Shown here: in pieces, positions 3,201-37,422 of the stretch
How positions within the stretch are numbered: the first letter of the stretch is position 1
How the letters are laid out: every line of letters starts with the position of its first letter
NCBI GenBank assembly: GCA_041671565.1
Contig: JBAZBH010000003.1
Span: 572-64,571, forward strand
Source: Patescibacteria group bacterium
Lineage (GTDB): Bacteria; Patescibacteriota; Patescibacteriia; JACRDY01
Direction of reading: 5' to 3'
DNA length: 64,000 nt
The notes under the pieces: generated by a model
Databases searched by the model: none
What the model saw: only the letters and a program-made list of their open reading frames with translations
What the model was told of the DNA's origin: nothing
Program-made: the position numbers and the translations under genes

Positions 3201-3710
3201 TCAGTCGGGGCGGCGGTCGGCAATCCAGGGGCTGAAGACTTCCGCCATGAATTTCATAGAAATTGCGAGTTGTTCGTTTGTCAATATACTCTGCCAGGCA
3301 AGAGTATAAATGACACCGAAGATGAGACCGAGTAATTGAGGGAAGTCCATCACTTGGTCGGATTTGTTCTGTGAATCCTGTTTGGTTGTCGGCAGGTGTT
3401 TTATATGACTATACCAAGCCCGGCCGACTTTGTTCAGAAATTCATTGGCAACGGCGCCTTGTTCGGGTGTCAGTTTGTGCCAACAGGCGATGGCGAATAA
3501 GATCACTTCTACGGGGTTGGTTTGTGCGTCATCATCCAACGCATGTATTCCGATGGCGTCTTCACTGCAATAAAGGAAGAGCCTGACTCGCGGGTCGTCG
3601 ATAGAGCCGAGATCATTTACTGCCGTTATTTCGGCGCTCGTCGGTTGACAAAACGGTGGCAAATCTTTCAGTTGGAAATGAGTTGGTATCTCGTACATTT
3701 GGGCCTCCAA
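3201..3710 (-). CDS. hypothetical protein, tandem paralog B
   Basis: 169-aa ORF; same 5' block as paralog A at 3711-3775. Confidence 0.45.
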   Translation of the reverse strand: MEAQMYEIPTHFQLKDLPPFCQPTSAEITAVNDLGSIDDPRVRLFLYCSEDAIGIHALDDDAQTNPVEVILFAIACWHKLTPEQGAVANEFLNKVGRAWYSHIKHLPTTKQDSQNKSDQVMDFPQLLGLIFGVIYTLAWQSILTNEQLAISMKFMAEVFSPWIADRRPD

Positions 3711-6278: not shown

Positions 6279-6690
6279 AAAACTCATCATCTACACCGAC
6301 GGCGGGGCGCGCGGCAATCCGGGGCCGAGCGGCATTGGCGTGGTGATTTATGACGCCCATAAAAAGCCGGTCAAGGAATTCGGCCGGTATATCGGCGAAG
6401 GGACAAATAATCAGGCGGAGTATCAGGCGGTGATTGACGCGCTCGCCGCGGCCGAGAAACTGGGCGCCGAGGAGATTGATTTTTATCTGGACAGTGAGCT
6501 GGTGGTGATGCAACTCCGCGGCGAGTATAAAGTCAAAAACAAGGATCTCGGCTCGCTCTTTGTTAAAGTTTATAATTTAACCGGTAAATTTAAGAAAATC
6601 ACTTACCGCCACATCCGCCGCGAGGAGAACCGCGCGGCCGACCGGCTGGTCAATCAGGCCTTGGACGCGGCGATGACTTCGGGGAAGTAG
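6271..6690 (+). CDS. rnhA: ribonuclease HI
   Basis: IYTDGGARGNPGPSG and NNQAEYQAVIDAL catalytic motifs. Confidence 0.85.
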   Translation: MNKKLIIYTDGGARGNPGPSGIGVVIYDAHKKPVKEFGRYIGEGTNNQAEYQAVIDALAAAEKLGAEEIDFYLDSELVVMQLRGEYKVKNKDLGSLFVKVYNLTGKFKKITYRHIRREENRAADRLVNQALDAAMTSGK

Positions 6691-17973: not shown

Positions 17974-18149
17974 GACAAGAAGTTAAGATATCGTAATGAC
18001 CCCGTCGCGGCGGGGTCATTTAGTTTAATTAGATAGGCTTATTTAGCCATGAATGAGCGAGATTTAGTAGAACGATGTGTAGGGGCAATTCACGAATTGC
18101 CCCAAACAAATCATCTTAATTCTACTAATATGTTTTTTCATCGCCTGCG

Positions 18150-18410
18150 GCGGGCTTGTCACTTTTGTGACCAAAAGTAACCAAAAGTCCCGGGGTGGCA
18201 AAAAGCCCGAGCTCGTGGCTTCTACCTACTTCTCGCTCCGCCTCACCTCGCAGTCGCTATCTTTGGTTCTATTCCTAGATATATCGCTTTGCGGCAACAT
18301 ATACCTACTTGATACTCGGGCAGGTCGGCTCGTCTCGGGGCTTTGCCACCCCGGACCCCGATTCTGGTTGGCTTATGTCTTTGTAGCGGTTCTGTCTAGT
18401 AGTTATGGGA
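18150..18410 (+). ncRNA. candidate structured non-coding element, copy 1 of 2; the ORF called across it is probably spurious
   Basis: Shares conserved ends with 33265-33560: 5' ttttgtgaccaaaagtaaccaaaagtcccgg..ggggtggcaaaaagcccg, 3' cggggctttgccaccccggaccccgattctggttgg; long-range complementarity between the ends. Confidence 0.35.
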
Positions 18411-18555
18411 TCTTAAAAACTTATAACTTGTTGTCGGGTTGAAATTAAATCGGAAATCAGCTAGAATAGGGGGTGCCGATTAAAATCGGAATTTTTGTGT
18501 ATTTAAGGGGTTTTTGGAAGGTTGAGGGTTAGTTTAAAAAAATAATGCTGTCTAG

Positions 18556-18638
18556 CGCAGGGAGACCACATAGTGGTCGAGTGCGCTCGCTTGGCCACCG
18601 CCTCCGGCGGGGTCCCGCCGCAGGCGGGAAAAGCGAGA
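18556..18638 (+). repeat. partial tRNA-Ser-like copy with a 34-nt GC-rich insertion (direct repeat of 19033-19115)
   Basis: gcagggagaccacatagtggtcgagtgcgctcgcttgg[ccaccgcc..gcaggcggg]aaagcgag; lacks the T-arm and acceptor 3' strand. Confidence 0.6.
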
Positions 18639-18679: not shown

Positions 18680-18766
18680 CGGAGAGATCGCATAGTGGTC
18701 TAGTGCGCTCGCTTGGAAAGCGAGTGTGGGGAAACCCACCGGGGGTTCGAATCCCCCCCTCTCCGC
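18680..18766 (+). tRNA. tRNA-Ser (anticodon GGA), long variable arm
   Basis: Cloverleaf by eye: anticodon loop cTTGGAAa, variable arm GTGTGGGGAAACCCACC, T-loop GGTTCGAATCC. Confidence 0.7.
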
Positions 18767-18791: not shown

Positions 18792-19049
18792 ATGTACACA
18801 GTTTATATAATTGAAAGTTTGTCGAACGGTAGGCATTATATCGGCGTTACTTCTGATCTGGCTCAGCGTTTACGGCACCATAACAGTGGCGCCAACAGGT
18901 CAACTAAGAACAGGGGACCATGGAAAATAGTTTATTCTGAAGTTTTTCCCGATCAAAAAACGGCTTGGTTAAGAGAACGGCAAATTAAGAAATATAAAGG
19001 TGGCGAGGCGTTTAAAAAACTTTTGATAAAAAGCAGGGAGACCACATAG
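18792..19049 (+). CDS. small GIY-YIG nuclease family protein (YhbQ / COG2827-like)
   Basis: YTVYIIES..GRHYIGVT..L..RL..HN...WKIVYSE.F....A..RERQIKK; about 85 aa; stop codon lies inside the downstream tRNA-like repeat. Confidence 0.7.
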   Translation: MYTVYIIESLSNGRHYIGVTSDLAQRLRHHNSGANRSTKNRGPWKIVYSEVFPDQKTAWLRERQIKKYKGGEAFKKLLIKSRETT

Positions 19050-19153
19050 TGGTCGAGTGCGCTCGCTTGGCCACCGCCTCCGGCGGGGTCCCGCCGCAGG
19101 CGGGAAAAGCGAGTATATCGAAAGGTATCGGGGGTTCGAATCCCCCCTCTCTC
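19033..19153 (+). pseudogene. tRNA-Ser-like copy carrying a 34-nt insertion in the anticodon loop and an altered variable arm
   Basis: Complete cloverleaf-length copy ...gcttgg[34 nt]aaagcgag tatatcgaaaggtatc gggggttcgaatcccccctctctccgcc; direct repeat of 18556-18638. Confidence 0.45.
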
Positions 19154-19187
19154 CGCCATGGACTTATTGGGATTTAAAATAGCGACG

Positions 19188-33144: not shown

Positions 33145-33264
33145 GATTAAGGAAATTAAATAGCGGAGTAACGGGGCATCTGCCCCGTTGTGCTTTTCGG
33201 AATGACACAGCCTCTGGCTGTGTTTTTTAGTTTGGTAGGATAAATTTTCTTTAGCCCTCGCCGG

Positions 33265-33560
33265 GCAGGCGTTACTTTTGTGACCAAAAGTAACCAAAAG
33301 TCCCGGCCTGCCCGCAATGCTTCGCATAGCAAAGCAGGCGGGGGTGGCAAAAAGCCCGATCTTCGTGGCACCTTTCTACTGCTCGCCCCGCTTCATCCCG
33401 CCAGTCGCGACTGGCGGGACGAGCCTCGCAGTCGCTACCTTTGGTTCTATTACCCCTATATATCGCTTTGCGGCAACATATATTTACTAGTTAGCCGAAA
33501 GGGTCGGTTCGTCTCGGGGCTTTGCCACCCCGGACCCCGATTCTGGTTGGTTTTGTACTT
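33265..33560 (+). ncRNA. candidate structured non-coding element, copy 2 of 2
   Basis: See 18150-18410; differs by internal insertions while the 5' and 3' conserved blocks are near-identical. Confidence 0.35.
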
Positions 33561-33770
33561 TTGAAGGAAAGACACTGTAGAGGAGTGCTCTAATAAAAGT
33601 CACCTTACAGCCTAACCGGCTGTTTTTTTGTTAGCTTTAGCCTAATTTAATTGTGGATAAATCCGAGTGGTTGCTTTTTATAGTTTGGTGGTGTATAATG
33701 GTATGTAGTGGAGGAATGTGGATAAAGGTGGGGAGAACTTAGACAAAGGGGGATAATAAAAATAAGGCTT

Positions 33771-35775: not shown

Positions 35776-35969
35776 AACCAGTTAGTACTTTCAACAAAGA
35801 CAAATTGGTCCTGGCTTTCTTTTGGTTATATTTATACAATAAGTTAATCAAAAGAAGGCCAAGGACAACCCTTTGGCCATTTGTCGTGTCTGTCTGTTAT
35901 TGGCAGTAATATGCTCGGCAATGGGGTCGAGTGTAAAACTGTTTGACAGCAGATGCAGGAGGAAGTCAG

Positions 35970-36584
35970 ATGTCCGATATCACTGTGGAACAGTTGGGCG
36001 AACTTATCGCCCAGGCAAAGTCTAAGGACGGGAAGCCGCCGCGAGTTACTCGCGAAAATCTGCAAACCTTCTTGCGCAATCCAGACGGATTCGTCGCGGG
36101 CGGCACGCAGTATCTCCGTCTCCTCCCAGGCCAGCCGCTCACCATCGGTCCGACCAGCGGTTCCCGAATCATCGCCAATGCGGTCGATGTGTTCAAGGCT
36201 GGTATTGACGGCGATTTCAACAACTGGGGAGTTAACCGACCGGCGAAAGAGACCGAAGAAATGGTGATCAGCCCTCCCTACGAGCTGGTGACCAACGGCA
36301 AATTCGCCGAGATTTTTGGCTCGTTGTCGGCAGACCCGCGCCGACTGTGCTGGACGCAGGACCAGATCATTAAATATGTGGTCACGCACCCTGACCAACT
36401 CGGCGCCAACAGGAACTTTTTTCTGACCGAATCGGGTGGGGAGTTCTTCGTGGTCGATGTGTATGTGTACGACGACGGTCGGCTCAACGCCGATGTCGGC
36501 CGGTTCGACCTTGCCCGTGTCTGGCGCGCCGAGGACCGGCATCGGTTCTTCGCTCCGCAACTGGCGAATCCTTTGGCCGTTTAG
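35970..36584 (+). CDS. DGR target (variable) protein; the variable repeat encodes its C-terminal ~40 residues
   Basis: Last 122 nt of the coding sequence form the VR; good ribosome-binding site; C-terminal FFVVDVYVYDDGRLNADVGRFDLARVWRAEDRHRFFAPQL is the diversified segment. Confidence 0.7.
   Translation: MSDITVEQLGELIAQAKSKDGKPPRVTRENLQTFLRNPDGFVAGGTQYLRLLPGQPLTIGPTSGSRIIANAVDVFKAGIDGDFNNWGVNRPAKETEEMVISPPYELVTNGKFAEIFGSLSADPRRLCWTQDQIIKYVVTHPDQLGANRNFFLTESGGEFFVVDVYVYDDGRLNADVGRFDLARVWRAEDRHRFFAPQLANPLAV
36444..36565 (+). repeat. DGR variable repeat (VR)
   Basis: 122-nt match to 36908-37029 with 16 mismatches, each at a TR adenine (11 A->G, 3 A->C, 2 A->T). Confidence 0.85.
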
Positions 36585-36907
36585 GCCCCTGGACGCTTTG
36601 TCACTCTTTCCCTTGGGCTCTCAAGATGCACATGCACTTGAAGTCCAAGGGATTTTTTTATACAATAACTATGCAGTTTGGAAAATTTGCGGCTACGGCT
36701 TCAAATCAAAACTGTTGAAGATCATTATTCCAGAATTTCGTTGGATATGTCTTGCGAAAGAGTGAAAATGCTTTCCATAATAAAAAACAGCCAGTTGGTG
36801 CCAGCAGCTAGTGGACTTCTATGTCCCAAATAAAATTCAACCCTAAGTCCGTCCGCCAACCGGCGGACGGACAAGGGGCGGTGACTAAAGACGGCTGGTG
36901 GCACATT

Positions 36908-37029
36908 TTCTTCGTGGTCAATGTGAATGTGTACGACGACGGTCAGCTCAACGCCAATGTCAACCGGTTCGACAATGCCAATGTCTGGAACGCCGAGAAC
37001 CGGCATCGGTTCTTCGCTCCACAACTAAC
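36908..37029 (+). repeat. DGR template repeat (TR), rich in AAC/AAT codons in the VR frame
   Basis: Invariant non-A positions and adenine-only differences versus the VR; not inside a credible gene. Confidence 0.85.
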
Positions 37030-37038
37030 TGTTTTCTC

Positions 37039-37422
37039 TCATCTATTATTAGGGGTGGGAGTTTTTTGTAAAAGACCTTTCTTCCACCCGCCCAGCATCC
37101 GACCGATCTCATCTAGTTTTTGAGACAACTCCGTATATTTATCGGTATGGATACATTTGTTTTCCCAAGCCAATTGGATGAAAAATTTCAGAATATCCAG
37201 TCGCGGTATAACCTTACCCAGTCCGACTATTTTTTGTTCTGGCGGCAAGTAGGAAGTGGCATAAGTTAATTCCAGTAAATTAAGAAAAACCGAGTCAATT
37301 TTTTGACCCAGGCCGAAACGCTCTACCTTGGGAAAATTACGATGTAAGACCTGCCAATATTGATAAGCTTCTTTTTCCTTGGTTATTACCACGGGTAATC
37401 CCCGGTTAGTACTAAAAGTCAT
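37039..37422 (-). CDS. avd: Avd-like accessory variability determinant (four-helix-bundle / 23S rRNA IVS protein family)
   Basis: 127 aa; ..YQYWQVLHRNFPKVERFGLGQKIDSVF..LAWENKCI..LSQKLDEIGRMLGGW matches the four-helix-bundle family pattern; lies between the TR and the RT. Confidence 0.6.
   Translation of the reverse strand: MTFSTNRGLPVVITKEKEAYQYWQVLHRNFPKVERFGLGQKIDSVFLNLLELTYATSYLPPEQKIVGLGKVIPRLDILKFFIQLAWENKCIHTDKYTELSQKLDEIGRMLGGWKKGLLQKTPTPNNR

Follow-up and report, generated by a model that had tools for sequence, protein, structure and literature searches.

What is the element that occurs twice in a stretch of the genome of a Patescibacteria group bacterium, and does it act as protein, RNA or DNA? 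The stretch, hereafter the window, is 64,000 nucleotides (nt) long (contig JBAZBH010000003.1 of assembly GCA_041671565.1, positions 572 to 64,571 of the forward strand, which we call the plus strand). Each copy of the element is overlapped by an open reading frame (ORF), and the initial annotation had favored a structured RNA or DNA element over a protein. We conclude with high confidence that both copies are non-coding members of a dispersed family, present in many phyla, that is defined by a covarying hairpin and pseudoknot module. Further, we hold with moderate confidence that the unit is a small-RNA gene architecturally related to the TwoAYGGAY RNAs.

The initial annotation had reported a duplicated element with nearly identical ends, interiors varied by insertions and a 5'/3' pairing that could close it. 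Both copies were found where they had been placed, and we refined their limits to 18142-18371 (copy A) and 33254-33550 (copy B); a degenerate extra repeat after copy B extends to 33567. A 33-nt 5' block, ACTTTTGTGACCAAAAGTAACCAAAAGTCCCGG, was identical in the two copies. A 27-nt pattern within this block, GTGACCAAAAGTAACCAAAAGTCCCGG, and the 36-nt 3' block CGGGGCTTTGCCACCCCGGACCCCGATTCTGGTTGG each occurred twice in the window and not once in 100 dinucleotide shuffles. The block GGGGTGGCAAAAAGCCCGA was also common to both copies. The 127-nt 3' part was 87% identical and terminated in the identical 36-mer, and 190 of the 214 positions aligned within the element were identical. The interiors did differ by insertions: compared with copy A, copy B carried a hairpin-forming insertion of 36 nt (33305-33340) and a second insertion of 28 nt, which lies within a perfect 30-nt palindrome (33393-33422); two further indels were each 1 nt long. 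Both stretches present only in copy B formed hairpins, the second being a perfect 15+15 palindrome, and the first was complementary to the flank of the short hairpin H0 of copy B described below. This suggests that small palindromes were inserted secondarily into loops of the element. No third copy was detected within the 64 kb by sensitive self-comparison or by a covariance model built from relatives (R1), which recovered both copies on the minus strand (E=4e-13 and 2e-13).

The two ORFs do exist on the plus strand (18167-18442 and 33280-33564), and their translations share N- and C-terminal peptide strings, which is what speaks for a pair of paralogous small proteins. Because of the indels between copies A and B, however, the ORFs share a frame only at their ends. 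In the middle, 61 of 205 aligned columns were read in different frames, including the well-conserved CCTCGCAGTCGCTA.CTTTGGTTCTATT, and mismatches in the shared-frame parts numbered 4, 4 and 7 at codon positions 1, 2 and 3, without a third-position bias. No homologue of the ORF of copy A was found among 5.8 billion proteins, and four translations from both strands gave no match in Pfam or NCBIfam. Further, relatives have spacers of 2 to 10 nt within the conserved block, and therefore no frame can be conserved. We thus agree that the element is non-coding and consider the protein pair to be extremely unlikely.

A divergent housekeeping RNA (RNase P RNA, 6S, SRP or tmRNA) had a single point in its favor, namely the 9-nt likeness of AAAGTCCCGG to the P4 strand of RNase P RNA, to which the initial annotation had drawn attention. 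The likeness was not kept in relatives, which read AAAGTTTTGGGG, AAAGTCTTGGGG and others at this position (the bases after AAAAGT being TTTGGGG, CTTGGGG, CGCCGGGG and so on), and the element is multi-copy. Rfam 15 at gathering score detected only four tRNAs in the whole window, and no family matched either copy even at E<=10. RNase P, 6S, SRP, tmRNA, HEARO/IS605, known ribozymes and drum were all absent from the window, the two copies and 33 related loci; the relevant matches of the Rfam scans were confined to TwoAYGGAY in gammaproteobacterial relatives. The drum motif was also checked against its description (PMC5737381) and is unrelated. Since no Rfam family covered either copy, the RNase P hint is not supported, and we give a housekeeping RNA almost no chance.

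The duplication proved to be real but not private to the window: the two copies belong to a very large family. When species-representative genomes (one per species) were scanned for the exact 19-mer ACCAAAAGTAACCAAAAGT of the conserved block, it was found at at least 119 loci. The matches listed included Pseudomonas, Granulosicoccaceae, Kangiellaceae, Alphaproteobacteria, Bacteroidales, Sphingobacteriales, Cytophagales, Oscillospiraceae, Gemmatimonadales, Glassbacteria, several Patescibacteria and Gracilibacteria; among them, many lay at contig ends, and single genomes carried up to tens of copies. A metagenome scan for the continuation typical of Patescibacteria gave 72 further loci. Overall, we gathered more than 190 module loci from Pseudomonadota, Bacteroidota, Bacillota, Gemmatimonadota, Patescibacteria and others, a sample collected with the exact 19-mer, so that the invariance of the 19-mer is imposed by the search patterns. 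Plasmid, phage and Escherichia coli collections gave chance-level partial matches or none, and two scans of viral contigs gave 0 and then 1 match to the module. Exact look-ups of neighboring proteins led to identical DNA of the same organism alone, and such sequences are of no use for covariation. Two short Logan contigs of that organism end inside or beside the repeats, as expected for a multi-copy sequence. In the literature, the module sequence matched only unrelated primer and SARS-CoV-2 strings. As far as could be searched, the module appears to be undescribed so far, and it lies outside the Rfam model of TwoAYGGAY.

In plus-strand notation, the relatives have a common order: the variable hairpin H0, GTTACTTTTG, a spacer of 2-10 nt, ACCAAAAGTAACCAAAAGT, and bases complementary to the end of the spacer. 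A short hairpin with a widely varying sequence occupied the H0 position in most relatives. Both window copies show the arrangement of the superfamily, that is, a hairpin, GUUACUUUUG, a spacer and ACCAAAAGUAACCAAAAGU, the spacer being able to pair with the bases that follow the 19-mer. They also read CCC-GGGGTGGC...GCCACCCC-GGA-CCCC, which assigns them to the Patescibacteria-type subfamily. The body that follows the module measures about 110 nt in the common Patescibacteria type (YYY-GGGG..P1..CCCC-RRA-CCCC, where P1 is the closing stem), about 260 nt in Pseudomonas and more than 330 nt in Gemmatimonadales; in gut Alphaproteobacteria, mosaic and tandem arrays with other palindromes were found. 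Within the Patescibacteria type, the window copies count among the long variants; L166, L159 and L194 of our locus collection are closest to them. The parts of the two copies are as follows.

18142-18152, minus strand: hairpin H0 of copy A, CGCCTGCGGCG in plus notation, with a GNA-type triloop on the minus strand.
18158-18188, minus strand: universal module of copy A, composed of GTCACTTTTG (18158-18167), the spacer TG and the 19-mer ACCAAAAGTAACCAAAAGT (18170-18188).
18189-18359, minus strand: body of copy A, with P1 (18192-18202 with 18342-18352) extending inward to GCCCGAG/CTCGGGGC.
18280-18303, minus strand: interior hairpin of copy A, in the variable interior, with two G-U pairs on the minus strand only.
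18355-18359, minus strand: conserved ACCCC of copy A, at the end of the body.
18360-18371, minus strand: tail of copy A, GATTCTGGTTGG, where homology to copy B stops.
33254-33266, minus strand: hairpin H0 of copy B, GCCCTCGCCGGGC, of another type than that of copy A.
33271-33301, minus strand: universal module of copy B, GTTACTTTTG-TG-ACCAAAAGTAACCAAAAGT.
33302-33538, minus strand: body of copy B, with the 36-nt hairpin insertion (33305-33340), P1 (33341-33351 with 33521-33531), the palindrome (33393-33422), an internal hairpin (~33457-33483) and ACCCC (33534-33538).
33539-33567, minus strand: tail of copy B, GATTCTGGTTGG, and the degenerate extra repeat copy, TTGTACTTTTGAAGG.

The module was exact in both copies. 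On the minus strand that of copy A reads ACUUUUGGUUACUUUUGGU-CA-CAAAAGUGAC and forms a 10-bp hairpin, S1, and a pseudoknot stem, S2, which is G-A-C/G-U-C in both copies. In the folds, the full span of P1 was 18192-18210/18336-18352 in copy A and 33341-33359/33515-33531 in copy B. On the plus strand, H0 of copy A is followed by the U-rich GUCACUUUUG, which gives it the look of a terminator. The tail was weakly conserved among relatives (nUGGUnUUUU). The H0 type of copy A recurred with the element at L159 and L166 and that of copy B at L134 and L146; these loci are non-orthologous, and H0 is therefore part of the unit. Between the terminator of the upstream gene and copy A, positions 18089-18108 form a 20-nt perfect palindrome that is GGGGCAATTCACGAATTGCCCC-like (translated as '...GAIHELP...') and resembles a type of repeat present in other uncultivated bacteria. 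In Oscillospiraceae, a degenerate second module, GTACTTTTG-AC-ACCAAAAGTAC-CAAAAGA, lies directly upstream of the H0 of the full module (L083 ~6460-6532, L105 ~3222-3295 and L122 ~1764-1835), so that modules occur in tandem.

We aligned 30 Patescibacteria-type elements as minus-strand RNA. In this alignment, 92.8% of the cells were paired and 10 pairs showed double changes; none of 500 shuffles reached the observed values, and sliding the pairing partners abolished the signal. P1 contained six pairs with compensatory changes. In minimum-free-energy folds, the closing helix GGGGTGGCAAA/TTTGCCACCCC formed in copy A whichever strand was folded, but in copy B only on the minus strand; the plus-strand fold of copy B had other pairings in its place. 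With this one exception, the folds and the covariation of P1 in relatives indicate that the proposed closing pairing is real. The outer pairs of S1 were swapped on both sides among variant copies (GCUAC/GUAGC, CCUAC/GUAGG, CAUAC/GUAUG and TCAC/GTGA). S2, and hence an H-type pseudoknot, arises where the loop of S1 pairs with the bases that immediately precede the first U-tract; S2 stems were longer (5-8 bp) in other lineages. The pseudoknot pair at columns 130-150 was A-U in 15 elements and G-C in the other 15, never unpaired, and its flanking pairs were invariant.

The initial annotation was right about the structure, but the strand that folds is most likely the reverse complement of the one it described. 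The S1 pair at columns 140-161 was U-A in 17 elements and U-G in 13; the latter would be A.C on the plus strand. Counted as minus-strand RNA, the pair types included about 25 G-U and 3 A.C, although the fixed 19-mer makes the opportunity for G-U pairs in S1 unequal between the strands. Folding was better on the minus strand in 39 of 54 elements, and the alignment folded at -22.5 kcal/mol on the minus strand and at -17.3 kcal/mol on the plus strand. The interior hairpin at 18280-18303, with its two G-U pairs confined to the minus strand, points the same way. The ACCCC that follows P1 lacks a plus-strand partner but, read as GGGGU on the minus strand, can pair with ACUUU. Further, the pseudoknot appears to be sterically plausible only on the minus strand, where the 10-bp stem would be spanned across its deep groove by a 5-nt U-rich loop; a loop of 5 nt on the plus strand would need to span the shallow groove. 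From the G-U pairs, the loop lengths and the Rfam strand of the TwoAYGGAY matches described below, we conclude with moderate confidence that the folded and functional strand is the minus strand.

Among 17 related loci scanned with Rfam at gathering score, TwoAYGGAY (RF01731) was detected in Pseudomonas petrae, on the strand opposite to the ACCAAAAGT orientation and 60 nt 5' of ACUUUUGGUUACUUUUGGU. Sub-threshold matches with the same geometry were found in a Granulosicoccaceae genome (at full model length) and in P. abietaniphila; the scores were 43.1 bits at L042 (gathering score 43), 37.9 bits at L018 and 36.5 bits at L081. The Pseudomonas body carries two hairpins with AUGGAU loops, and hairpins with AYGGAY loops were also seen in the Granulosicoccaceae elements. 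Thus, in gammaproteobacteria the module lies just 3' of the TwoAYGGAY core, outside the Rfam model. TwoAYGGAY was described as a probable RNA, neither cis-regulatory nor a riboswitch, with a P1 that is often very long (Weinberg et al., 2010; PMC2864571), and binding of CsrA was later proposed for it and tandem G.A pairs were noted (PMC4333381); the literature of 2025 still calls it relatively unexplored. In Additional file 4 of PMC2864571, the 3' flanks of several TwoAYGGAY copies of Psychromonas ingrahamii and of one metagenome contig show CUUUUGGUUACUUUU...AAAAGUAAC followed by a GC hairpin. In supplementary file 29 of the same additional file, a Flavobacterium alignment whose motif name is unconfirmed, one flank reads AUUACUUUUGG...CAAAAGUAAAU (NC_009613 or NC_009441) and another reads CUACUUUUGGUCUUUGCUUUUGGU; the module or a variant of it may follow another candidate RNA of 2010 too.

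The module-bearing elements of Pseudomonas and Granulosicoccaceae thus resemble TwoAYGGAY in carrying its core on the same strand, directly 5' of the module. A long P1, the lack of a cis-regulatory gene association, apparent tandem G.A pairs in a stem and the presence of several copies in at least one genome (Psychromonas ingrahamii) are further shared traits. The long closing P1 stem is also found in the window copies and covaries in their relatives. The window copies differ from TwoAYGGAY in their payload, that is, the part enclosed by P1, and the module is absent from the Rfam model. They gave no match to RF01731 even at E<=10, and no adjacent hairpins with AYGGAY loops occurred in their minus-strand sequence or folds; for these reasons we did not assign them to TwoAYGGAY. 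We conclude that the module is an unmodeled 3' extension common to TwoAYGGAY and to many other payloads.

We consider the chances to be about even that each window copy is a dispersed small-RNA gene unit of a TwoAYGGAY-related superfamily, ending in a pseudoknot that is possibly triple-helical. In this model, the unit would be transcribed from the minus strand as a small RNA of ~210-280 nt. From 5' to 3', it would consist of the long irregular closing hairpin P1 with a lineage-specific payload, the module ACUUUUGGUUACUUUUGGU-(loop)-CAAAAGU(A/G)AC and the short GC hairpin H0. P1 may serve as a protein-binding platform, like the two GGA loops of TwoAYGGAY proposed for CsrA. The first U-tract may lie in the major groove of the A-U tract of S1 and form a U.A-U triple helix like those of telomerase RNA and the ENE, which would lock and protect the 3' end; the triple helix, as proposed, would be the reason why the sequence itself is conserved beyond pairing. 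On the opposite strand, H0 and the U-rich GUUACUUUUG might terminate transcription and so insulate the unit from the upstream gene. The copies would spread as non-autonomous units through a mechanism acting in trans. Our confidence in the triple helix, the protection of the 3' end, the protein-binding payload and the spread of copies is low.

We propose the U.A-U triples because the tract lengths co-vary and the layout fits triple-helix pseudoknots. The three tracts (upstream U, paired U and A, in this order) changed in length together, being (3,3,3) at L009, (4,4,4) at most loci and (5,5,5) at L036 and L056. On the minus strand, a stem is followed by a UUUUG loop, a stem whose junction-proximal end is U4/A4 and a short loop, and this arrangement of a stem, a U-rich loop and U4-A4 is that of the triple-helix pseudoknots of telomerase and SAM-II. 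In Psychromonas, by our own reading, the loop UUCUUUU matches the purine strand AAGAAAA in the parallel register. A switch between alternative pairings fits the same tract-length data. Compared with known triple-helix pseudoknots (P2b-P3 of telomerase RNA, SAM-II, preQ1-II and the ENE of PAN and MALAT1), the module has the same order of parts, two U-tracts with one A-tract and a similar position at the 3' end, a likeness in possible mechanism for which we do not claim homology. The element differs in that H0 follows the A-tract, which is therefore not the extreme 3' end, and in that it has no associated reverse transcriptase, ligand or poly(A).

Several observations weigh against the small-RNA reading. 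No conserved sigma-70 promoter was found on either strand, and upstream on the minus strand there was only a weak A/T-rich, -10-like stretch. Nor is the 3' end of the minus-strand unit followed by a U-tract terminator. The window copies carry no payload of known function, and the absence of AYGGAY loops from them and the unequal opportunity for G-U pairs in S1, both given above, count on the same side. G-T pairs together with hairpins would fit a single-stranded DNA intermediate too. Further, at 51 of 62 Patescibacteria-type loci, the H0-side gene is directed toward H0, at a median distance of ~60 nt; this bias also fits a terminator role on the plus strand or targeted insertion. On the other (tail) side, no orientation bias was detected (38 to 35). 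In other lineages, a converging gene on the body side prevailed (Bacteroidales 9:1, Alphaproteobacteria 9:1 and Gemmatimonadales 6:2). From these biases we conclude that the units sit at the 3' ends of genes, like REP-like repeats.

Chief among the competing explanations is a selfish repeat that acts purely as DNA, like a miniature inverted-repeat transposable element (MITE), REP or PATE, in which single-stranded DNA hairpins are recognized by an enzyme acting in trans, such as a Y1/HUH transposase or a recombinase, and the RNA is incidental. We regard this as unlikely, yet as a serious contender. The high and patchy copy number, contigs that break at the element, the alphaproteobacterial arrays and the random housekeeping neighbors all suit a selfish repeat. 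So do the minus-strand loops of H0, which are GNA triloops and as such form stable DNA mini-hairpins, the degenerate direct repeats of CAAAAGUAAY that flank many units, and the small GC palindromes inserted elsewhere, including the reverse complement of H0 of copy A, even in a tRNA-like gene. However, no transposase, integrase or reverse transcriptase was found within ~2.5 kb of ~200 copies, and plasmids, phages and viral contigs hardly ever carry the module. The inverted repeats of the window copies are internal (S1 and P1) and not terminal as in MITEs, and no target-site duplication was seen at the boundaries of copies A and B. Transposon ends seldom show 40 nt of conservation between phyla. 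Further, the gammaproteobacterial payload is a covarying RNA motif with loops of a protein-binding type, and tandem G.A pairs and G-U enrichment are typical of RNA. Comparison with known repeats points both ways. Like REP/BIME/REPIN, ERIC, Correia/NEMIS, RUP and BOX, the element is short, non-coding, palindromic, multi-copy and located just downstream of genes, and it shares with REP-like repeats internal insertions, assembly breaks and a possible role as terminator or RNA stabilizer. Those families are confined to a genus or a family, REPs come with associated RAYT genes, the Correia and ERIC repeats are bounded by terminal inverted repeats and, to our knowledge, the sequences of families of the REP, ERIC and Correia type are not conserved across phyla. 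The element differs from them in its ~45-nt core kept across many phyla and in its pseudoknot covariation; a REP architecture of the GTAG type or a nearby RAYT was not noticed in the sequences read, with no systematic search made for either. It resembles the ends of IS200/IS605 and PATEs in its strand-specific subterminal hairpins, a terminator-like hairpin at one end, non-autonomous copies and the lack of terminal inverted repeats and target-site duplications. It differs from IS200/IS605 in that no TnpA or TnpB gene lies near any copy and no Rfam match to IS605, HEARO or omega-RNA was obtained, and we know of no conservation of IS200/IS605 hairpin sequences across phyla. Hin/hix, dif/Xer, CTnDOT core sites, attC, parS, boxA and Ter were set aside by reading, as their sequences or fixed spacings do not match the element, whose spacer ranges from 2 to 10 nt.

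Two further alternatives were weighed. H0 with GUUACUUUUG might be a plus-strand 3'-end element that terminates and stabilizes the upstream mRNA, the rest being a back-to-back block of convergent terminators. The co-oriented gene on the H0 side in the Patescibacteria-type subfamily accords with this, as do a U run after the module on the plus strand in several lineages and terminator-like plus-strand sites that bracket both window copies. In the window, however, each upstream gene has a terminator of its own ahead of the element (17995-18020 and 33204-33224). Covariation of P1, S1 and S2 favors the minus strand, the plus-strand pseudoknot loop would probably be too short, the context bias is opposite in other lineages and the TwoAYGGAY payload lies on the other strand. 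We thus find this explanation improbable in place of the small RNA, although a terminator role on the plus strand may coexist with a small RNA or a DNA repeat. A cis-regulatory leader or riboswitch for the downstream tRNA-Ser cluster and mraZ is more doubtful still and, in our judgment, very unlikely. Both copies do lie upstream of plus-strand genes, and the pseudoknot architecture would resemble that of small riboswitch aptamers. However, clustering and a Pfam scan of 150 flanking ORFs revealed no recurrent neighbor gene family, the neighbors being unrelated housekeeping genes, and the tail-side genes showed no preferred orientation. Of 205 copies, only 5 had a tRNA within 700 nt. Some genomes carry tens of copies each, and a plus-strand terminator separates copy B from mraZ.

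Several features near the copies deserve description in their own right. The anticodon loop of a tRNA-Ser-like gene (~19036-19158), which neither ARAGORN nor Rfam called, is interrupted by a GC-rich, 34-nt insert of two hairpins. The first 81 nt of this gene, insert included, are duplicated exactly at 18557-18637. Between 18557-18637 and 19033-19158 lie an intact tRNA-Ser(GGA) and a small GIY-YIG ORF (18681-18766 and 18792-19049). This looks like a GIY-YIG/tRNA cassette that was inserted into, or replaced, a disrupted tRNA gene. The 13-mer CGCCTGCGGCGGG of H0 of copy A (18142-18154) recurs reverse-complemented at 18614-18626 and 19090-19102 (minus strand), in the tRNA insert, and this insert also contains the hairpin CGCCTCCGGCG, which is the H0 type of other Patescibacteria elements (L032 and L059). 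Because H0 hairpins recur inside the tRNA insert, small GC mini-hairpins seem to be a separate class of mobile repeats in these genomes. Further, the plus-strand ORFs 35943-36584 and 36821-37123 share a C-terminal motif (...VYVYDDGRLNADVGRFDLARVWRAEDRHRFFAPQL and ...VNVYDDGQLNANVNRFDNANVWNAENRHRFFAPQL) and may form a small paralogous family. Outside the window, a group II intron domain (RF00029, 55.5 bits; L025 5932-6006, minus strand) lies ~450 nt from a module copy of Sphingobacterium suaedae, which is probably a coincidence.

If the small-RNA reading is true, two spurious 'hypothetical proteins' would be removed and the assembly breaks in the host organism would be explained. TwoAYGGAY, an orphan family of Rfam since 2010, would be tied to a far larger set of elements across phyla, and the shared module would open a new approach to the function and the multiplication of these RNAs. 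The elements would also provide candidate small RNAs in Patescibacteria, where almost none are known. The near letter-for-letter conservation of the module from Pseudomonas to Patescibacteria would point to a constraint beyond ordinary base pairing, such as a triple helix or a universal binding partner. We tentatively put forward, as possible but on balance doubtful, that the ~45-nt module is an ancient triple-helix pseudoknot that caps the 3' ends of a multi-copy small-RNA superfamily with exchangeable payloads and that maybe also serves as a copying handle. The payloads would be TwoAYGGAY in gammaproteobacteria and Clostridia and others in Patescibacteria, Bacteroidota, Gemmatimonadota and Alphaproteobacteria. 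If so, the module would be a bacterial analogue of the ENE and of telomerase-type triple helices, and TwoAYGGAY would be redefined as one branch of a much larger class.

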